A DNA stretch of 64,000 nucleotides from Methanobacteriota archaeon (GTDB lineage Archaea; Halobacteriota; Bog-38; Methanoflorentales; Methanoflorentaceae). Below the pieces are notes generated by a model. The model was given only the letters and a program-made list of their open reading frames with translations, had not been told where the DNA came from and made no database searches. The stretch spans positions 32,001 to 96,000 of the forward strand of contig CAVRAO010000012.1 of the NCBI GenBank assembly GCA_963719035.1. Direction: 5' to 3'. This document shows positions 20,939 through 43,331 of this stretch, in pieces (within the stretch, counting starts at the first letter, position 1; the number at the start of each line of letters is the position of its first letter). The translations under genes were made by a program, and so were the position numbers.

Positions 20939-21801
20939 CTACCAGCTTTCGGCTGTTGCATCTGCGGGCTGCGGCTTAGTCCCTACCACTTTTATGCTCC
21001 GCACCGCATCCGCGACGTCACGTAGCTCCTCAGAGGTGAGCACCACACGTTGTTCGATCGCTTGTGCAGACGGGTCATTCGCCATACACTCAAGCGAAAA
21101 GGGCGTCTCATCATCGACCCGCGCACCCTCAAATCCGGCATCACGAATGGCCTGCAGATAGGCGTCTTTTAAGATCGCCCCAGATAAACATCCAACATAC
21201 GCGTCAATCGACTGTTGCACGGCATCAGGCAGTTCCTTGAGTACGACGATATCGGAAACGGCAATGCGGCCGCCAGGCTTGATACCCTGAATGCTTCGCT
21301 AAAGACGGCCCCTTTATCGGGGGTCAGATTGATCACGCAGTTAGAGATCACAACATCAACAGAGTTGTCTGCAGCAGGCAGATGCTCAAGCTCCCCGAGC
21401 CTAAACTCGACGTTTTCGTAGCCACCAGAGCGCGCGTTCGCCCTCGCCTTGTCGATCATAGCGGGCGTCATGTCAACGCCGATAACCCTTCCCCCTTCGC
21501 CTACAATGTTGGCAGCGAGGAAACAGTCAAACCCAGCGCCCGACCCTAAGTCGAGCACGGTCTCGCCTTCTTTGAGTGTGGCTAACGCAGTTGGATTTCC
21601 ACAACCAAGGCCAAGATTTGCCCCATCAGGGACCGAGCGTAGCTCTTCATCCCCGTACCCAACGGCCTTGCTAAGCTCGTAAGCTCGATCGGCGCTGCCA
21701 CAGCAGCCGCCTACTGGGATAAGCGTCAGGGGGTCGCGTTCACGCTTCGCAACCTTTGCATATGCGTCTCTCACGACGCGTTTAACCTTGTCTTCTTCCA
21801 T
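20939..21801 (-). CDS. arsM: Arsenite methyltransferase, second copy, frameshift near 21283
   Basis: Two ORFs join into a full paralog of 6690-7517 ([36 protein letters not shown]) if one base is restored. Confidence 0.88.
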
Positions 21802-24133: not shown

Positions 24134-24664
24134 ATGTTCCTCAGTGACTATACCGTAAGGTTAGTTCTCTCAGACTGCAATCCTTCATCTCAAAAGGTGA
24201 ACGCCCTCGTGGATCTATCTGAGGACATTAGCGAGGTACTTCCCTATCTCAACACCGTTCTGAAAGGATTGCAGTATGATCAGGATGAGAAGTTCTTAAC
24301 CGTGAGGAAAGAAGGGCGCTTGATTACCTTCAGGTCAAAACAGATAGCAGTCGCTAAACTAGAGGATGAAAATGAAGCAAGGTCGGTCATGGAAGAATTG
24401 AAAGAGATTGTGAATGCGACTTACGCGAATAGAGATCATATCAAACCGACCTATAGTTCTAGACCGGCCCCCCGGCCTCTTGAGATCTTTAAACTCATGC
24501 CGGGAAATAACTGTAAAGAATGTGGGGAGCCAACCTGCATGACCTTCGCTTTAAAACTGGGTAATGACGAAGTGAAACTAAGCCAGTGTCCGTTGCTCTT
24601 CAAAAAAGAATTTGAAGTAAACCGTTCTATACTAAACGAGATCTTGCCCGACTTGGAAATATGA
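24134..24664 (+). CDS. Fe-S binding protein with CdhE/AcsC-type 4Fe-4S domain (COG4871-like)
   Basis: DISEVLPYLN N-domain; C-terminal PGNNCKECGEPTCMTFA...CPLL. Confidence 0.85.
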   Translation: MFLSDYTVRLVLSDCNPSSQKVNALVDLSEDISEVLPYLNTVLKGLQYDQDEKFLTVRKEGRLITFRSKQIAVAKLEDENEARSVMEELKEIVNATYANRDHIKPTYSSRPAPRPLEIFKLMPGNNCKECGEPTCMTFALKLGNDEVKLSQCPLLFKKEFEVNRSILNEILPDLEI

Positions 24665-32820: not shown

Positions 32821-33144
32821 TCAAAAAATTCGCATCTTTTTATTCATAATATTCTTTTTGATCATATCCAGAGCGGTTTCCAGCGCTCCGCGAACTGCTT
32901 CATCTTGCTCATCGTTTAATGCGTAGATAAGAGACGCTGTTGCACTCGCATCGCCCATCATCCCAAGGGCCAATGCAACACTTAACCGCACGTCTGCATT
33001 GCTGTCCTTCAACGCTTGTGTAAGGGGGTGCACAGCTCGCGCATCTTCCAGCTCTCCGAGCGTCTCAGCGGCGCTCCGTCGAACCTTCGGGCTTTTGTCA
33101 TTCAATGCAGTGATTAACCCGTCAACATTATCTTGGGCTGCCAT
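32821..33144 (-). CDS. Short HEAT-repeat protein
   Basis: VRRSAAETLGELEDARAVHPLTQAL and VRLSVALALG units. Confidence 0.8.
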   Translation of the reverse strand: MAAQDNVDGLITALNDKSPKVRRSAAETLGELEDARAVHPLTQALKDSNADVRLSVALALGMMGDASATASLIYALNDEQDEAVRGALETALDMIKKNIMNKKMRIF

Positions 33145-33262
33145 CGTTATCACGTCGTTTGTAAGCGCGAAGCGCTAAGAGGGACTGAAGCAATGAAACG
33201 AAGTCACCCTTGCTGCGCTTTGGAGTGACTGCCATCACGGTACACCGCTTTCACATCCTCGC

Positions 33263-35419
33263 TCAAGCGTACCCATTAGAGGCATGCTCAAGCGCCGGGT
33301 GGTTTATCTTCTCCAAGTACTCCGCTAGCTCTTCAGCGTCTGTCGCGATCGTTTCATCAGCGATCTTTTCTACCAAATCGGACAATCCGACCTCTTTTGC
33401 CCGCTTCTCAAGATTTTCACGCAACGCTTCTTTCAACTCCTTGGGCATCCAGACGATTCTCGCGATGCCGCCATCCGCACGTATAAACTTCTTGCTCGTA
33501 ATGAACTGCCTCCCGATACCGACGAACCCGGGCGTTTGATTTCCACACCGACCGACCCCGCAAGAGTCGAGAACTTCGCGCCGATAGGGGTCATGTCGGT
33601 GTATTCTCGGTTGACCACGATGACCCCTTGCAAGTCACTGCTGATCGCCACAATACATTCAAAACACCCACACGACGTTTGCGGGTCCTCCATCATGGTC
33701 TATGATTCATTCGCTCGATGCGGCCATGGGTAAGCTCTCGTACGGCTTCGTTAACGTTTGTCCACTGGCCTTTCTGCTCATCGATGGCAGCGCCCTTTTC
33801 AACCGGCTTATTCGGTCCGTTTGAATCGATGCTAAACCCCGCAGCCGCATCAAGCCAATTCAATGCGCCACACAGCCCTAGGCGTTCAGGAGAGATGATG
33901 CACACGTGGCACGGTGCAAAGCTCTGACACAACGTACACGCGTAGAACTCGTTGACGCTTTCATCGGTCAGTCCAGCGACCCTCCTGTCCCTTTCAGCGT
34001 ATGACTCGTGGGCCTCTGGTAAGTGCTTTTCCACCTCATTCTGGTCGGTGATGATTGTAACTTGTAGCCGGCTGATAATTTCCCCGAACTCTTCCTTCAT
34101 TTTATGAGATAAAGGATATCACCGAAGTGCTTGAAGCGTAACCCGCTGGCCACACTATTCTTACTTAGTCGCACCCAGAGTAAGTTTCTCTGACCCGTAT
34201 GCCACGCGCCCTCTGCGTAATTGATGAACTGGTGGATGCGCCGTTCAACGACGGGTTCAAACTCCTTTTTCATGTGCTTGCCGTATACCTCAACAAATAT
34301 CCCAAGTGCTGATACGCTCCCCTCGTCCATCTCATCGACGTCCTTCCCGATCAGCGCGACATGACCGTCCTTAACCGCGTCGGCGTTGCGGATCTTCACG
34401 AGCTCAAACACCTTTGTCTTGGTTGGACCTCCACACTCGACGTAGGTCTGGGGCTTGCGCACCATTTCTCCCTCGAAGGCGAGACCATACGCTGCCGGCA
34501 GCGACACTTGGCCGAATTTCACCTCCATATCCCGTATCTCTATGGCGTGCGCGACGATCTGACTGTAGTCTTTTTCTACTTCGTACTTGCCCGGCACTTC
34601 CTCCACATCTTGATCGGTGATCGTCGGCGAATCGTTGAACATCGCTGCGAACGCAATCGAAGCCTTGATGTCGTCCACCAGCCCCATCTGGACAACAACT
34701 ACCTTCGGCCTTTTGACAAGGTAATTGTGGAGTTCTGCCCTATCCCCTGGTCGGATGTTACCAAAGGTCAATGCCGCTCTGATAGCAAAACTCAAAGCGT
34801 GAACAGCTTGTGTGGACTCGCCAACACAGAATAGTAATCTATCAATTCCTTTTTGCTCACCAATCTCGATCCCAGCTTCTTTGATCTGCTGTATCGTATC
34901 GAAGGTGGGAATTACGAGCATGCCCTTACTCTGGCAGTCCCTGATGATCTTTGCTAGTAGTTTAGGGTCCTTCGCCTTTCCTACCAACACTAAGACCCCA
35001 GGTATGGTATCATCAACGAATGAGATGCCTAACCTCCGGAGCACTTCGTCGGCAATGAACCCGGTGTATGGGGTATCCGCATACGGGTCAGGATTGTCGA
35101 TGTACTTGAGGGCCTCAACGATTTCTGCAGCGACCATAGTCGCTTCTCCTGAGGCCACAGCGTTGTCAAACGTGTACTCCTCTCTAATCTTGCCCCTCAC
35201 TTCTCCAAGAAGTCGCGGCAACTGCGCGAGTTTCGTCACTCTTTCGCCTGTCCACGCGGTGATGCATGGAAGATAGTACCCGGTGCTTGGGTATCCAATC
35301 TCCTTATCACGCCCGTGTTGACGTATCGCCTTATTGAGGAGCTGATCTGCGTATCCAGTCGCGATAATGGCCCCGTCGATCGCTTTCTTGTAGAGCGCAA
35401 CCTGAGAGAGTTTCAGCAT
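33263..35419 (-). pseudogene. acsB: Acetyl-CoA synthase (ACS), bacterial-type long form, split by 3-4 frameshifts (about 34100, 33700, 33547, 33290)
   Basis: Consecutive ORFs give N-domain YPSTGYYLP, FEGE, ERRIHQFINY, CTLCQSFAP.HVC..SPERLGLCGA, TSCGCFEC, GNQTPGF, RIVWMPK, HPAL; about 718 codons. Confidence 0.88.
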
Positions 35420-35467
35420 CTCTTCTCACTCGTCCTTAGTCCTCGCTTTGCACTTTTTCTCTATCGT

Positions 35468-35491
35468 ATTTATATATGATTATATATCAAT
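35468..35491. promoter_or_regulatory. Putative ArsR operator upstream of acsB
   Basis: ATTT ATATAT GATT ATATAT CAAT, about 50 bp upstream of the acsB ATG. Confidence 0.65.
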
Positions 35492-35821
35492 ATTATGCGC
35501 TGAAAAAAGCTAAAGCAATTGGTTTCAAGCACCAAAGCACGCCCCCAATTTATAAGTCGCAAATAAGTCCCCTTAAGACGTTTTTTGAATAGAACAGGTT
35601 GTGCTCGCAAAGAAAGAACCACCCTGTAAATTCTCCTTGCATATGGGCGTACTAGTTAAGGGCTATGGGTGGGGCTTAATTATTCTAGAGAATTCCTCAG
35701 GGTGATCCTTGGACACGATGTCCAACGCAGAAACTTGCACAACGATTCAGCTCACTTGCCCGTGGAGCGAAGCGGGCTTCAGATCGCGCTTAAAGTGTTG
35801 AGTAGCGTCAAATGGCAACGG

Positions 35822-35845
35822 AGATATATATGATCATATATATGC
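35822..35845. promoter_or_regulatory. Putative ArsR autoregulatory operator
   Basis: Perfect 20-bp palindrome ATATATATGATCATATATAT (35824-35843), about 35 bp upstream of the arsR ATG. Confidence 0.7.
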
Positions 35846-35877
35846 AGATTTAACAAAGGCATCCTAAGATAGACAGC

Positions 35878-36254
35878 ATGAAGATAAGTGACCCTATAAA
35901 ATCGCTTCAGAACTTTGCAGAGGCATACGACATCAACGTCGAGGAGCTAAAAGTACGCTTAACGAAATTGCCGAGGAGATTGATACGCGCGACACGTACA
36001 AACAGGCACGCACGCTCAAGGCAGTAGCTGATTCAACGAGGCTTAAAATTATCAAGGCTCTGAGCCAACACGAACTCTGTGTTTGTGAACTCATGTTGCT
36101 GCTCAATGCACAGCAGTCTGCTGTGTCACATCACCTGCGCATACTCAAAGACGCCAATCTCGTGGTGGAACGACGCCAAGGCAAATGGAGCTTCCACCGA
36201 CTTGCGGGCGATCGCCTTGGAACGCTTTTAAGAGCGCTTGACGAGTTGGAGTAG
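35878..36254 (+). CDS. arsR: ArsR/SmtB metalloregulator with ELCVCEL motif (missed by ORF track; apparent 1-bp deletion near 35958)
   Basis: MKISDPIK...ELKVR / LNEIAEEI...LKAVADSTRLKIIKALSQHELCVCELMLLLNAQQSAVSHHLRILKDANLVVERRQGKWSFHRL...LDELE*. Confidence 0.88.
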
Positions 36255-36376
36255 CGCGAATAGAGCCCATCTCAAATTGCTTTTTTTAGCACGCACGTAA
36301 CCTTCGACCAGTTTTACTGCACTTCGTTTTTGCTGGGCGAGAGAATGAGCACTACGGTTAGGGGCGCTTTCAAAAC

Positions 36377-36400
36377 ATTGATATATGTTAATATATTGAT
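36377..36400. promoter_or_regulatory. Putative ArsR operator
   Basis: ATTG ATATAT GTTA ATATAT TGAT. Confidence 0.65.
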
Positions 36401-36503
36401 ATTTAAGTAGACTGCAACGACAAGTCGTCGACGAACATAGCAGTCGTCCCGGTATTGCCTCAATCGCGCCTAGCGTAGCGGAGACAACTAACAGATATTT
36501 CAG

Positions 36504-37031
36504 GTGAATACTATGACTCAATCGCTTGCACGATGCATCACTGTAGAGCGCTTTCACTCAGTCAACAAACAAGACGATGCCGATGCTCAACGTGGAATGA
36601 TGGAGCTCAGCTTACGCGAGGACGTGCATGAGCTTCAGGGGGTTTTAGAAGGGGTAACGTGTATCGCATTGTGTGATGTCACAGTGGGTGAAGAAGATAG
36701 CCGTCTCGCAGTTGGCAAGAGTGAGTCGATCCGAATTACGTGCAAAGAGCTGGGAATTGCCTCCTTGCTGCTAGATGAGATACTAAATCCAAACTTTGGA
36801 ATGGGTTGCTGTGCTGCGTGCCCATATCAAGCAAACTCTGAGGCGTGCTGTAGGACTTTTACGGATGATGAGCTTGACTCAAAATCGATGTCGATGGCGC
36901 TGGTAGTCGCGGCTATATTGAAGTTGACATTCTGTTCTGAAAGTTCTACAAAGAGCAGTAATGCCAAAGATTCGCTCAGAAAAAAGATTATGCGTAAGTC
37001 TAATATATTTAGATATATTCATATGTTCTAG
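36504..37031 (+). CDS. Cys-rich hypothetical protein
   Basis: 175-aa ORF with GCCAACP and ACC clusters behind an operator copy; start and 3' end uncertain (overlaps the next promoter). Confidence 0.4.
   Translation: MNTMTQSLARCITVERFHSVNKQDDADAQRGMMELSLREDVHELQGVLEGVTCIALCDVTVGEEDSRLAVGKSESIRITCKELGIASLLLDEILNPNFGMGCCAACPYQANSEACCRTFTDDELDSKSMSMALVVAAILKLTFCSESSTKSSNAKDSLRKKIMRKSNIFRYIHMF
36999..37022. promoter_or_regulatory. Putative ArsR operator upstream of CMD-arsP-thioredoxin
   Basis: TCTA ATATAT TTAG ATATAT TCAT. Confidence 0.6.
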
Positions 37032-37067
37032 GTAGAATTTCCAAAGTCAGACGTAGTGGCTCACGAT

Positions 37068-37480
37068 AAGGAGAACGAAAATGACAGAAGAGAAGCAAAT
37101 GATTGTTGATGAAATCCTCACGATGATGGAAAAGGGGTTGGGGGAGGAGCCGAAGCCCATGGTGCTGATGTCAAAGCTTATCCCTGAGTGGATTCCGAGA
37201 CAAGCCCAGGAGAAGAAGTTCGTAATGGAGCAACTAAATCATATTCCATCCAAATACAAACATCTCATCATGATTGCTGCTTCGGCGGCCGTCGGTTGTC
37301 ATCTTTGTACCGAGACGTTCATCAAGATTGCCTGTCGCGCCGGCGTAACCAAAGAGGAAATCGCGGAGGCAATCCTTGCAACCCGGTTCGCCCTGGCCTC
37401 CACCACTTTTGCTACGGCGGTTGAGGGAATGGAATTTTTAACCTCCAAGGAGTGAGGGAAATGGACGAATAACGACACTA
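37068..37480 (+). repeat. 413-bp direct repeat, copy 1 (copy 2 at 42919-43331)
   Basis: Covers RBS, CMD gene and about 25 bp downstream; only difference noticed is 37163 T vs 43014 C. Confidence 0.92.
37081..37455 (+). CDS. Carboxymuconolactone decarboxylase/AhpD-like protein, copy 1
   Basis: KYKHLIMIAASAAVGCHLC...AGVTKEEIAEA motif. Confidence 0.88.
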   Translation: MTEEKQMIVDEILTMMEKGLGEEPKPMVLMSKLIPEWIPRQAQEKKFVMEQLNHIPSKYKHLIMIAASAAVGCHLCTETFIKIACRAGVTKEEIAEAILATRFALASTTFATAVEGMEFLTSKE

Positions 37481-37507
37481 AAAATTCAAAAAATTATGAG
37501 GTAACCT

Positions 37508-38494
37508 GTGGTTCCAGATATTTTACAAGAAGCTGTTAATTACCTAACATACGTGTTGATAGGGTTAGACCCTGCATCTCCGTTAGGCAGTGCAATCAAC
37601 TTCTTCATCTATGATACCATAAAAATTTTAATTTTATTAACGGTAATAATATTCGCTATAGCCTTCTTCAGAAGTTATATATCACCTCTAAAGGTTAGAA
37701 AAGCCTTAGGTAAAAGAAATGAGTATATTGGGAATGTGATAGCTGCTTTAATAGGCATTATCACACCTTTCTGTTCTTGCTCGGCAGTGCCGCTCTTCAT
37801 AGGATTCGTAGAATCAGGAGTGCCATTGGGAGTCACTTTTTCCTTTCTAATTGCTTCCCCTATGATAAATGAAATCGCCATTATCTTATTGTGGGGTTTG
37901 GTGGGATGGCAAATAACAGCCATATACATTATATCCGGTCTCTTCATTGCCATAATAGCCGGTATAATTATTGGGAAGCTTAAATTGGAAGGTGAGGTGG
38001 AGAGCTACGTTTATGAGATGATCGAAAAAATAAAAGCGGCGGAAGCATCAGGAATGACTCTGGAAGAGGATAAACAGACCTTAAAGGAACGTGCCCTCTC
38101 CTCAAGAGATTACACTAAAGACCTATTGAAAAGGATTACGCCTTACGTAATAATAGCAATTGGAATAGGTGCGATTATGCATGGATATATTCCCTCAGAT
38201 TTCCTTGTCACCTATGCTGGTGCAAATAATCCTCTAGCGGTACCCTTAGCAGTTTTGATAGGAGGACCTCTCTATTCAAATGCTGCAGGGATCATTCCAT
38301 TGGTTGCCGTCCTTATTGATAAGGGAATACCTCTTGGAACTGCTTTGGCATTTATGATGGCAGTAACTGCATTATCCCTGCCAGAAATGATTATACTCAG
38401 AAAAGTGTTGAAACCTAAACTCCTAGGAATTTTTGTCGCCACATTGGCAGTGTCTATAACCGCCGTAGGCTATTTATTCAACGCTATAACGTAA
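37508..38494 (+). CDS. arsP: ArsP/DUF318 permease (organoarsenical efflux)
   Basis: TPFCSCSAVP, FLIASPM, PLYSN, LSLPE motifs. Confidence 0.88.
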   Translation: MVPDILQEAVNYLTYVLIGLDPASPLGSAINFFIYDTIKILILLTVIIFAIAFFRSYISPLKVRKALGKRNEYIGNVIAALIGIITPFCSCSAVPLFIGFVESGVPLGVTFSFLIASPMINEIAIILLWGLVGWQITAIYIISGLFIAIIAGIIIGKLKLEGEVESYVYEMIEKIKAAEASGMTLEEDKQTLKERALSSRDYTKDLLKRITPYVIIAIGIGAIMHGYIPSDFLVTYAGANNPLAVPLAVLIGGPLYSNAAGIIPLVAVLIDKGIPLGTALAFMMAVTALSLPEMIILRKVLKPKLLGIFVATLAVSITAVGYLFNAIT

Positions 38495-38563
38495 AATAAC
38501 AGGATCTGTGTAAAATTCATTATTTTGAATATTAAATGTTGATATCAAGACAGAGGTGATTAT

Positions 38564-38803
38564 ATGAAAATAGCGGTATATGGACCGGGATGCGCAAACT
38601 GCCAAAATCTAGAAAAAAATGCTAAAGAAGCTGTCAAAGAAATTGGTATAGATGCTGAAATCACGAAAATTCAGGAAATTGACAAGATACTGGAATCCGG
38701 AATAATTGCAACTCCTGCATTAGCAATAGATGGAGAAATGAAATCCATGGGAAGGGTCCCGTCTGTGGAAGAAATAAAAAAATGGATTAAAGCTAAAATG
38801 TAA
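38564..38803 (+). CDS. Small redox-active disulfide protein (MTH895-type thioredoxin)
   Basis: GPGCANC...TPALAIDG...GRVPS. Confidence 0.9.
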   Translation: MKIAVYGPGCANCQNLEKNAKEAVKEIGIDAEITKIQEIDKILESGIIATPALAIDGEMKSMGRVPSVEEIKKWIKAKM

Positions 38804-39066
38804 AAAAAATCAAGAAAGAAATCCAAATTCTTTCAGCAGACCTTCTTTGAATCTTATAAGGCGATTTTCCAAACGTCTTTGTGCAAATTTATTACGCTTC
38901 AAATGCATCTCGGTGACCCTGATACTCCTTCTTTTTACATTCTTGGTTTCAGTGAAAATACTCGCACGACGGTAAATTGCGCTGTAACACAGTTGGTGAC
39001 AAACGCTGCGTCTTGCCACACGTCTCAACGATGCTGCAGCCCTAAAGCTTCGGAGGTGGTGACGAC

Positions 39067-39309
39067 GTGGATTTAGATGTGAATATTAAAGCTCACGACC
39101 TACTATGGCGACTTATGGATCCTGCGATTAAAAAGCGTTATACTGAAAGCTTTGGCGCAAGAAAGTCGCAGCTCGTTGACTCTGAGATGGCAAAACTTGT
39201 TAAATCCGGCCTCATCTTTGAAAAGGACAATCGATATGACCTTACCTCGAAGGGGCACTCAATCTATAACTTATTGACTAAACAGAAAGGCTGTTGTCAA
39301 CCTATGTAA
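39067..39309 (+). CDS. Small winged-helix protein with C-terminal CC
   Basis: GGAGGTG RBS; LVKSGLI...YDLTSKG wing; ends KGCCQPM. Confidence 0.65.
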   Translation: MDLDVNIKAHDLLWRLMDPAIKKRYTESFGARKSQLVDSEMAKLVKSGLIFEKDNRYDLTSKGHSIYNLLTKQKGCCQPM

Positions 39310-39424
39310 TCGTTAAGACGCAATTGCGGTTGCGAGCCATGAAAGGTATCGGGTCAGTGCGTTAGCAAGACGCTGTTGTTCATATCACGGGCTATTGAAA
39401 TGCGCGAAAGAAGAGGTTTCTTAC

Positions 39425-40513
39425 ATGGTTGAAAAACCCAAAGGACGGCTATCGTTCCTAAACGAATTCCTGACCCTCTGGATCTTTCTCGCGATGATTA
39501 TCGGCGTGACGATTGGGTACTTTTTCCCAGGCGTCCCAGGCGCGCTTAACCAACTATCCGTAGGCACGACCTCTATCCCCATCGCTATCGGGCTTATCGT
39601 AATGATGTACCCGCCCCTGGCGAAGGTACGCTATGAGGAGCTGGGAGCCGTCTTTCGGAACACGAAGGTCTTAGGCTTAGGGCTCGTGTTCAACTGGATC
39701 ATGGGACCGCTCGTGATGTTCGCGCTCGCCGTCATCTTTATGCGCAACTATCCTGAGTACTTCGTAGGACTCATTCTCATCGGCATTTCGCCGTGTATTG
39801 CCATGGTTATCATCTGGATCCACCTCGCTCGTGGCGACGGTGAGTACGCGGCGGCCTTGGTCGCCCTGAACTCAATTATGCAAGTTCTCTTTTACTCAGC
39901 GTATGCCTTCTTCCTCATCACGATCCTGCCACAGTGGCTTGGGATCACCCAAATAGCGACCGTGGTAAACGTGTCCATTGTCGAGATCGCGAAGACCGTG
40001 GCCATTTACCTCGGCATTCCGTTCGTTGCGGGGGTGATTACCCGATACGTGGGGTTGAAACTCAAAGGGCGGGAACGGTACGAAACGCGTTTCGTCCCTA
40101 GGATCGGACCAGTTTCGCTTATAGCGCTGTTGTACACTATAATCATAATGTTTTCTTTGAAGGGGAACCTCATTATATCGCTGCCACTTGACGTCGTGCG
40201 GATTGCCATCCCCTTGCTCGGCTACTTCATAGTGATGTTCTTCGTCCCCTTCTTTATCTGCTGGCGAGTAGGTCTCGATTATGCCAAAACGGCCACACTC
40301 GCGTTCACCGCGGGAAGCAACAACTTCGAGCTTGCCATAGCGGTAGCGGTCGGCGTCTTTGGCTTAAATTCCGGTCAAGCGTTTACTGCAGTGATCGGGC
40401 CGCTGATTGAAGTGCCCGTCTTAATCAGCCTGGTCAACGTAGCCCTATGGTTCTCCGCGAAGTATTTTACCTCTACCGGAGAGTCAACCGCGAAACGTTC
40501 TAAGCATAATTAG
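39425..40513 (+). CDS. acr3: Acr3 arsenite efflux transporter
   Basis: [48 protein letters not shown] motifs. Confidence 0.95.
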
Positions 40514-42918: not shown

Positions 42919-43331
42919 AAGGAGAACGAAAATGACAGAAGAGAAGCAAATGATTGTTGATGAAATCCTCACGATGATGGAAAAGGGGTTGGGGGAGGAG
43001 CCGAAGCCCATGGCGCTGATGTCAAAGCTTATCCCTGAGTGGATTCCGAGACAAGCCCAGGAGAAGAAGTTCGTAATGGAGCAACTAAATCATATTCCAT
43101 CCAAATACAAACATCTCATCATGATTGCTGCTTCGGCGGCCGTCGGTTGTCATCTTTGTACCGAGACGTTCATCAAGATTGCCTGTCGCGCCGGCGTAAC
43201 CAAAGAGGAAATCGCGGAGGCAATCCTTGCAACCCGGTTCGCCCTGGCCTCCACCACTTTTGCTACGGCGGTTGAGGGAATGGAATTTTTAACCTCCAAG
43301 GAGTGAGGGAAATGGACGAATAACGACACTA
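42919..43331 (+). repeat. 413-bp direct repeat, copy 2
   Basis: Near-identical to 37068-37480, offset 5851 bp. Confidence 0.92.
42932..43306 (+). CDS. CMD/AhpD-like protein, copy 2
   Basis: Identical to 37081-37455 except one V/A change. Confidence 0.88.
   Translation: MTEEKQMIVDEILTMMEKGLGEEPKPMALMSKLIPEWIPRQAQEKKFVMEQLNHIPSKYKHLIMIAASAAVGCHLCTETFIKIACRAGVTKEEIAEAILATRFALASTTFATAVEGMEFLTSKE

Follow-up and report, generated by a model that had tools for sequence, protein, structure and literature searches.

A stand-alone acetyl-CoA synthase gene divergent from arsR and preceded by a putative ArsR operator in an archaeon of the Bog-38 lineage

The window analysed here is a 64,000-nucleotide (nt) stretch of an archaeal genome of the Bog-38 lineage (GenBank assembly GCA_963719035.1, contig CAVRAO010000012.1, positions 32,001 to 96,000), a genome that comprises 13 contigs and 2.19 Mb; positions without a contig name are those of the window. 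An earlier note on this DNA had pointed to a stand-alone acetyl-CoA synthase (ACS) gene divergent from the repressor gene arsR, and this arrangement was borne out, with ACS on the minus strand, arsR on the plus strand and a 16-bp palindrome in front of each (Table 1).

Table 1. Features of the ACS-arsR locus, of the window around it and of the related fused gene elsewhere in the genome (G000). C5 is an alternative contig of the same region; X1, X2, X6 and X7 are public sequencing runs; P0001 is an intact orthologue of the ACS.
Feature	Position	Strand	Evidence or remarks
Stand-alone AcsB-type acetyl-CoA synthase gene	33235..35419	-	Pfam; tblastn with P0001; run contigs; dN/dS; structure match
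Assembly indel 1	34106..34109	-	Two extra letters (TC) in window and C5; the 2 letters are absent in X1 and X6 contigs
Assembly indel 2	33700..33702	-	Garbled GTAC site; window one letter short, C5 one letter long; X1, X6 and X7 read ...NQYT... in frame
Assembly indel 3	33542..33546	-	One letter lost inside GGTGGTGG; X6 and X7 insert it at 33545; a loose end of X2 agrees
Assembly indel 4	33289..33291	-	One extra T shifts the last 18 codons; letter absent in X1, X2 and X6
Palindrome A, ATATATAATCATATAT on the - strand	35472..35487		Ends 52 nt upstream of the ACS ATG (35419); overlaps the TATA box predicted for the ACS promoter
Palindrome B, ATATATGATCATATAT	35826..35841		37 nt upstream of the arsR ATG
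Palindrome C	36381..36396		Between arsR and the DUF2703-like gene
Palindrome D, ATATATTTAGATATAT	37003..37018		Upstream of the AhpD/CMD-like gene
arsR, ArsR/SmtB repressor	35879..36254	+	ELCVCEL motif; frameshifted in window at 35947, intact (125 amino acids) in C5 and run contigs
HEAT-repeat protein gene	32821..33153	-	Pfam HEAT_2, E 1.3e-19; about 85-90 nt downstream of ACS
ars genes past arsR	36504..40513	+	DUF2703-like (below Pfam cut-off), AhpD/CMD-like, ArsP-type permease, ArsE-family thioredoxin-like, small winged helix-turn-helix, ACR3
Gene for 176-residue protein with C-terminal AcsC-like [4Fe-4S] domain (PF04060)	24134-24664	+	
arsM	20939-21801		Split by a contig-discordant indel (about 21282)
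Fused CODH-ACS gene, 1400 amino acids	G000 contig C2:655184-659386 (locus L073:7185-11387)	-	Prismane, CODH_A_N, CdhC, ACS_CODH_B_C

When read correctly, the ACS gene comprises 727 codons, from the ATG at 35419 to a stop at 33235-33237. The earlier note had described a full AcsB-type ACS of about 718 codons; the enzyme type stood, while the length had to be revised because the C-terminal end had been missed. This end (...MGTLERGCESGVP), located by tblastn with the intact 727-residue orthologue P0001, and the last 18 codons as a whole (...SMPLMGTLERGCESGVP) fall in a fifth reading frame. Pfam searches on the minus strand within 33263-35419 found CODH_A_N (E 2.8e-29), CdhC (E 5.9e-51) and ACS_CODH_B_C, the last as three successive pieces (E 8e-44, 2e-22 and 2e-36), so that the three-domain architecture of AcsB, including the N-terminal domain that binds carbon monoxide dehydrogenase (CODH), is present across the fragments in the window. 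The motifs YPSTGYYLP, CTLCQSFAPCHVC...LC and SCGCFEC were seen, in agreement with the claim that the gene encodes this N-terminal domain and all cysteines of the A-cluster. All seven aligned cluster cysteines are kept in the window ACS (C494, C497, C506, C516, C583-G-C585 and C588 in P0001 numbering) and are the same in the fused CODH-ACS halves described below, and the [4Fe-4S] cubane pattern C-x2-C-x8-C-x9-C and the Cys-Gly-Cys pair align with the motifs of structures 9FR0 and 1RU3; the assignment of individual cysteines to individual metals follows the Moorella structure. Furthermore, P0001 scored 932 bits against NCBIfam model NF040764 (cut-off 800), and its residues 8-715 matched the ACS structures 1RU3, 7ZKJ and 1OAO end to end (E ~1e-229). 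The presence of the N-terminal AcsB domain sets the gene apart from the archaeal CdhC class, the beta subunit of the acetyl-CoA decarbonylase/synthase complex (ACDS), which has about 470 amino acids, lacks this domain and is encoded in cdhABCDE operons. As an enzyme the window ACS is, judged by its sequence, an ordinary member of the AcsB family, with predicted nickel content and predicted activity. As had been claimed, no CODH or corrinoid-protein gene adjoins it, and the only Prismane and CdhD matches of the genome are on contig C2.

Four indels break this gene into five frames in the window, where three to four had been counted before, and a further frameshift interrupts arsR at 35947. The proposed check of reads over these sites was run with contigs of four public sequencing runs (X1, X2, X6 and X7), aligned on window positions 33150-36300. 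Every run contig that bridged an ACS or arsR indel site was without that indel: at 35947 one letter is inserted in the X1, X2 and X7 contigs, and at 33700/33702 the contigs of X1, X6 and X7 show a C-to-G change and one inserted letter, which gives CAGTACACC and restores NQYT. Apart from these sites, each piece of the X1 contigs departs from the window by 0-3 letters. The ACS frame is also broken four times in C5, a 36-kb alternative of window 10447-46425, and is whole in all bridging run contigs and in the orthologues P0001-P0004. C5 is 99.41% identical to the window, with 164 substitutions and 48 indel columns; in the central overlap, 7 of the 9 indel events lie no more than 7 nt from a GTAC, against a background of 3.5% of positions, and systematic long-read errors would be expected to cluster in this way at a modified motif. 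At 33700 the window and C5 are both out of frame, each in a different way. Indels between the two contigs also split arsM (about 21282) and a gene for an ABC-2 permease (32271).

Because the ACS indels are absent from run contigs that are otherwise nearly identical to the window, and because the window and C5 disagree mostly at GTAC, we read the four frameshifts as long-read consensus errors and the ACS gene as intact. The substitution pattern is consistent with this. The ratio of nonsynonymous to synonymous substitution rates (dN/dS) was 0.12 against the orthologue of genome G007 (182 codons) and, in comparison with the ACS half of the genome's own fused enzyme, 0.073 when 697 codons were pooled; by segment, each read in its own frame, the latter comparison gave 0.10, 0.02 and 0.05 for three of four segments, synonymous sites being saturated in seg3, and nonsynonymous divergence (pN) was low in all four ACS segments. 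The orthologues P0001-P0004, intact at 727 residues, show 94% identity across the first 437 residues. With its indels absent from the run contigs and dN/dS at 0.07-0.12, the gene does not behave as a pseudogene.

Several observations nevertheless weigh against treating the indels as errors. Three of the four ACS indels are common to both long-read contigs of the genome and lie away from GTAC and from long homopolymers, where they are unexplained as errors, and one indel is a 2-nt insertion, an unusual error type; in addition, X1 may be the source sample of the genome and would then not be independent evidence, and several bridging contigs are shallow (depth 3-7). The ACS could be a real pseudogene in this strain, with the intact run versions stemming from neighbouring strains. 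However, we consider this highly improbable, as it would demand five frameshifts (four in ACS, one in arsR) against only about seven substitutions in the listed near-identical X1 contigs, an implausible ratio, in a gene with no in-frame stops, no deletions and all ligand residues kept, in which every segment has a low pN and, where computable, a dN/dS of 0.02-0.10. Moreover, the window and C5 disagree at 33700, where neither agrees with the run contigs, and indels of the same kind separate the contigs in arsR and in the arsM and permease genes named above. The scenario by which the earlier note would have discarded the locus, a dead passenger with real indels, fails likewise, since the run contigs lack the indels and the ACS-arsR adjacency recurs in two other species. 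In practice, consensus indels linked to GTAC give intact genes the appearance of dead ones in long-read genomes of this lineage.

We then considered the palindromes. The earlier note had placed an operator common to arsR about 50 bp upstream of ACS, and a shared element was indeed found at promoter distance from both genes, palindrome A before ACS and palindrome B before arsR (Table 1). The 16-bp pattern gave seven strand-matches at four sites in the window, where 0.07 were expected. In its exact form, ATATAT-N4-ATATAT, it occurs five times in the non-redundant 2.19-Mb genome, four of them within window 35472-37018; the fifth (C12:100571; L074:2072) lies 4.5 kb past the window end and 224 nt upstream of an open reading frame (ORF) for a 92-residue membrane protein. 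Copies with one mismatch were found at window 40571 and on contig C6, and a genome-wide search with the pattern gave none near the fused CODH-ACS operon on C2. Palindromes A and B do not vary among the three species with the ACS-arsR arrangement, in which the surrounding intergenic region has a mean column identity of 87%, and a palindrome precedes arsR in all eight relatives' loci examined, one of them from a second genus. The product of arsR matched the winged helix-turn-helix model NF033788 of NCBIfam at 91.5 bits (cut-off 55).

The C6 copy (C6:63560; L075:2061) stands 63 nt upstream of a 166-residue ORF beside a nitroreductase-like gene; apart from this copy and the one at C12:100571, all palindrome copies of the genome belong to the ars locus. 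The ACS-arsR intergenic region, about 460 nt long (35490-35825 beyond palindrome A), also holds a block at about 35700-35800 that is well conserved in the three species; this block was not found in the relatives without ACS, nor was another copy found in the genome. A small ORF in the block (35669-35833) was rejected as non-coding from its substitutions, which number 11, 14 and 15 over the three codon positions, and an Rfam search of 33000-36700 gave no match at E up to 1. Two metagenome matches (L059 and L060) to a 24-nt stretch of palindrome A were likewise set aside, having only a 27-nt AT-rich match in common and being otherwise unrelated; they provided no further stand-alone loci.

The gene downstream of ACS encodes a HEAT-repeat protein. 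Because the gap between the two genes holds, on inspection of its sequence, neither a palindrome nor an AT-rich element, and is only about 85-90 nt long, the HEAT gene is probably co-transcribed with ACS. In relatives G010 and G009 (two loci) and on contig C97 of G007, arsR is divergent from a HEAT gene homologous to that of the window, with the same two palindromes between them, the distal one about 50 nt before the HEAT start in G010. In the window, on G007:C215 and on G014:C8, ACS sits between palindrome A and the HEAT gene; G007:C215 matches the window at 86% over 2194 nt and G014:C8 at 88% over 1792 nt, and both end within ACS at the contig end. The ACS-arsR adjacency, whose recurrence the earlier note had wished to see checked, is therefore present in two other species. 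Since the same two-palindrome region separates arsR from HEAT in G010, G009 and G007:C97, the ACS gene is, on this comparison, an insertion between promoter and HEAT gene of a pre-existing arsR/HEAT divergon, with HEAT as the ancestral divergent partner. G007 carries both an ACS-containing and an ACS-less divergon, which suggests a presence/absence polymorphism. In G010 (L064:318-848) and at one G009 locus (L071:243-773), the HEAT gene is followed by a gene for the 176-residue protein with the AcsC-like domain, whose window copy is 9 kb away; this protein may belong to the same regulon in G010 and G009.

In order to place the stand-alone gene among its homologs, we compared it with the main enzyme of the genome. 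A separate complete acs operon of bacterial type, another check proposed earlier, lies on contig C2 and encodes a ferredoxin, a 1400-residue fused CODH-ACS, AcsD-like and AcsC-like proteins, a CooC-like ATPase, RACo and an AcsE-like pterin-binding methyltransferase. The window ACS is 84% identical to the ACS half of this fusion in DNA and 90% in protein, and the homology begins 24 nt past the ACS ATG (loose ends at 35395; query residues 4-437). Among 23 other genomes of the family, 20 have an ACS match; because 15 of these 20 lie in open frames of 1239-1418 amino acids, the CODH-ACS fusion is evidently the normal enzyme of the family. The remaining five matches are truncated or incomplete (1145 amino acids in G014, 978 in G005, 808 in G012, and partial only in G007 and G013). 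Other families of the phylum have frames of CdhC size (454-553 amino acids), which match query residues 293-438, the CdhC domain, only; the present family carries acs-type genes in their place.

Trees were built as quick IQ-TREE runs with support from the Shimodaira-Hasegawa-like approximate likelihood ratio test (SH-aLRT) only. The N-terminal tree (435 columns) contained a stand-alone clade of seven rows (SH-aLRT 99) and a family clade with both forms (SH-aLRT 100), nested among AcsB-type proteins of Thermoplasmata, with the bacterial sequences outside. In the C-terminal tree (281 columns), the stand-alone clade joined P0005, a more distant stand-alone form, with support of 98, and the family clade again had 100; the trees disagree, with weak support (82 and 91), on where the stand-alone clade falls with respect to the two genera. 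Because the stand-alone clade falls inside the family clade in both trees, the stand-alone ACS is the product of a duplication within the family, and not a recent one. The earlier description as a "bacterial-type" ACS therefore stands for the architecture and not for a foreign bacterial origin, as the gene is paralogous to the ACS half of the archaeon's own fusion and the ACS of the lineage is nested among Thermoplasmata sequences. Being such a within-lineage paralogue, it carries an N-terminal AcsB domain that is, by the same comparison, normal for this archaeon.

Synonymous divergence (dS) from the own fused half was 0.49 in the first 429 codons (33705-35419) and saturated in the remaining 268 (33296-33699). 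Gene conversion was considered for the N-terminal value and set aside, the stand-alone clade being monophyletic in the N-terminal tree; the contrast in dS between the two parts, together with their differing tree placements, may reflect an old gene conversion. A 50-codon ACS-like remnant with an internal TGA was seen in the second genus, 22 kb from the fused gene (L058; G018:C1, about 1870241-1870393). It was rejected as a further stand-alone locus, being a 143-nt fragment among housekeeping genes and unrelated to ars.

The close stand-alone group differs from the fused halves in two cysteines. Cys503 lies in the cluster-binding loop (FAPCHVC, versus FAPSHVC with serine in 13 of 13 fused halves), and Cys722 lies in an added 9-residue C-terminal tail and is missing from all 13 fused halves. 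The window carries both (33900-33915 and 33235-33290), as do P0001-P0004, P0006 and P0110; the Thermoplasmata homologues examined lack them. Of the 40 clade-diagnostic positions, 13 fall in the N-terminal domain (310 residues), where they are sparser than in either of the other two domains, and its changes are mostly conservative, so that this CODH-docking domain appears free of decay. Cys503 and Cys722 leave room for a more direct role with metalloids.

From these results we regard it as fairly probable that the stand-alone ACS is an intact and selected gene, duplicated within the family, which stands behind an ArsR palindrome, is released by arsenite and has a spare or arsenite-tolerant role. 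In this model, the ACS half of the fused CODH-ACS would have been duplicated inside the peat-methanogen family and, in a subset of species, would have become the first gene of a unit running divergently from arsR. ArsR would bind the palindromes and block the TATA region of the ACS promoter, and arsenite, As(III), at the Cys-Val-Cys site of ArsR would release the repressor, after which ACS and HEAT would be transcribed alongside the genes for efflux and reduction. The stand-alone ACS would then supply spare or arsenite-tolerant capacity while As(III) damages the main enzyme at its thiolate-ligated Ni-Fe-S centre, and this ACS might work with the AcsC/AcsD corrinoid protein of the cell, by analogy with the monomeric ACS of Carboxydothermus. 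Because the TATA region of ACS lies inside the same palindrome that fronts arsR and two ars genes, ArsR should repress ACS and arsenite should release it, and arsenite-derepressed expression of ACS is the best-supported reading of the locus; the physiological role as a spare or arsenite-tolerant module is the weakest step. As a tentative and rather doubtful extension of this model, ArsR might control a cysteine-enriched ACS isoform together with the HEAT protein, and in the sister species the AcsC-like Fe-S protein, as a hitherto unrecognised metalloid-stress module of the Wood-Ljungdahl pathway, which would replace poisoned A-clusters or link nickel/corrinoid methyl chemistry to arsenic transformation.

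Some points speak against arsenite control of a useful spare enzyme. The stand-alone gene occurs in 3 of 18 genomes of the genus, the present one (G000) counted, and it seems dispensable, since the single-contig genomes G010 and G017 have no copy. We infer binding of ArsR to the palindrome from its position, its conservation and its genome-wide rarity, and the palindrome is AT-rich and could partly be a bidirectional TATA element. In addition, the main enzyme is a fusion, which leaves a free ACS without an obvious CODH to feed it with CO. The first two of these points would suit an accidental link to arsenic, in which an intact and selected duplicate landed by arsR in a variable island, the palindrome serves mainly as a promoter, and expression is constitutive or responds to another signal, giving ordinary extra capacity, for example for the use of free CO. 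The region is variable, as the alternative contig C5 attests, G007 has divergons with and without ACS, and the palindrome halves resemble archaeal TATA boxes in sequence. We nevertheless judge such an accident unlikely, because the palindrome is nearly confined to the ars locus genome-wide and is letter-perfect in three species, because its presence before arsR in eight of eight loci is expected of the operator of an autoregulated repressor and not of a generic promoter, and because the distance of palindrome A from ACS (52 nt) matches that from HEAT in G010.

A direct action of the stand-alone ACS on metalloids, with the HEAT and AcsC-like proteins, by methyl transfer between corrinoid and arsenic or by binding of As(III) to the extra cysteines, would give a role to Cys503 and Cys722, and it would agree with the arsR-divergent unit of G010 and G009, in which HEAT is joined by the AcsC-like protein, and with an arsM 12 kb away. 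ArsR-like regulators are, moreover, on record beside hgcAB (PMC7438021), the genes for mercury methylation that descend from the corrinoid protein of the pathway to which ACS belongs. However, a limited literature search found no precedent for ACS acting on arsenic, the other diagnostic substitutions are conservative and the catalytic cysteines unchanged, as fits an ordinary ACS, and the deeper stand-alone form P0005 lacks both extra cysteines, so that we hold this direct role to be very unlikely and retain the arsenite-derepressed spare ACS as the preferred reading.

Compared with known systems, the window ACS resembles the monomeric ACS of Carboxydothermus hydrogenoformans (1RU3) and the AcsB of CODH/ACS complexes (7ZKJ, 1OAO and 1MJG) in its three domains, including the N-terminal CODH-docking domain. 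As with 1RU3, a functional monomer, its gene has no CODH partner fused to it or beside it, and the protein is presumably made without one. It differs from all four in its host, an archaeal methanogen lineage, in its origin as a paralogue of the ACS part of a CODH-ACS fusion, in its setting within a divergon for arsenic resistance, where a putative ArsR operator precedes it, and in its extra cysteine in the cluster loop and its cysteine-bearing C-terminal tail. The main 1400-residue enzyme of the genome is a single-chain CODH-ACS fusion of the type of Thermoplasmatota archaea; unlike this type, the window ACS is an un-fused derivative with its own promoter. A limited literature search on fused acsA/acsB gave nothing of evident relevance. 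The locus is like ArsR-controlled ars operons, in which the repressor regulates itself through an inverted-repeat operator, in having a winged-helix ArsR/SmtB protein with ELCVCEL, which presumably corresponds to the type-1 Cys-Val-Cys site of R773 ArsR, a palindrome before arsR and before neighbouring ars genes, and a cluster with ACR3, an ArsP-like permease, ArsC, an ArsE-like gene and arsM. Unlike the known operons of this kind, its apparent regulon takes in a carbon-fixation enzyme and a HEAT protein, the putative operator overlaps an archaeal TATA region, and the ArsR has a 40-residue N-terminal extension. The nearest parallel is the ArsR-hgcAB arrangement mentioned above, in which a metalloid-type ArsR likewise neighbours a gene whose ancestry lies in the CODH/ACS machinery; here, however, the partner is the Ni-Fe-S synthase subunit itself and not the corrinoid protein. 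No hgcA-like gene was found in the genome with PF03599, whose matches were confined to the two acs genes on C2. The unusual features are the un-fused ACS paralogue itself and its placement under the putative operator of an arsenic repressor.

Acetyl-CoA synthase stands at the centre of the oldest pathway of carbon fixation, and its regulation by a sensor of toxic metalloids would be a new link, if true; a limited literature search found nothing on regulation of ACS by arsR or arsenic. If ArsR truly controls a spare ACS, the Ni-Fe-S active site would be a relevant target of arsenite in vivo, and a dominant lineage of peat methanogens (Bog-38 / Ca. Methanoflorens) would have evolved a protection of its carbon assimilation. 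Peat is known to bind arsenic. The relatives compared here are described as metagenome-assembled genomes from peat, bog and fen, including the isolate 'bog_38'. Published work equates Bog-38 with Ca. Methanoflorens / Methanoflorentaceae, an abundant peat methanogen, and among the methanogens of northern peat this genus is reported to be the most abundant. The presence of the same enzyme both fused to CODH and free in one genome is, in addition, a natural experiment that invites comparison of the two forms.

The genes around the divergon are consistent with an arsenic-resistance cluster. ACR3, an arsenite pump, scored 432 bits against TIGR00832 (cut-off 282.8), and it is followed by thioredoxin/DsbD-like genes, a second CMD copy and an ArsC of the low-molecular-weight phosphatase type. 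The earlier note had also reported arsM and an AcsC-like Fe-S protein nearby, and we located one arsM gene and the gene for the 176-residue protein (Table 1), the C-terminal domain of which shares 55% identity with the [4Fe-4S] domain of AcsC across 38 residues. Within the ars cluster, a 413-bp repeat, 99.8% identical between its copies at 37068-37480 and 42919-43331, duplicates the AhpD/CMD-like gene.

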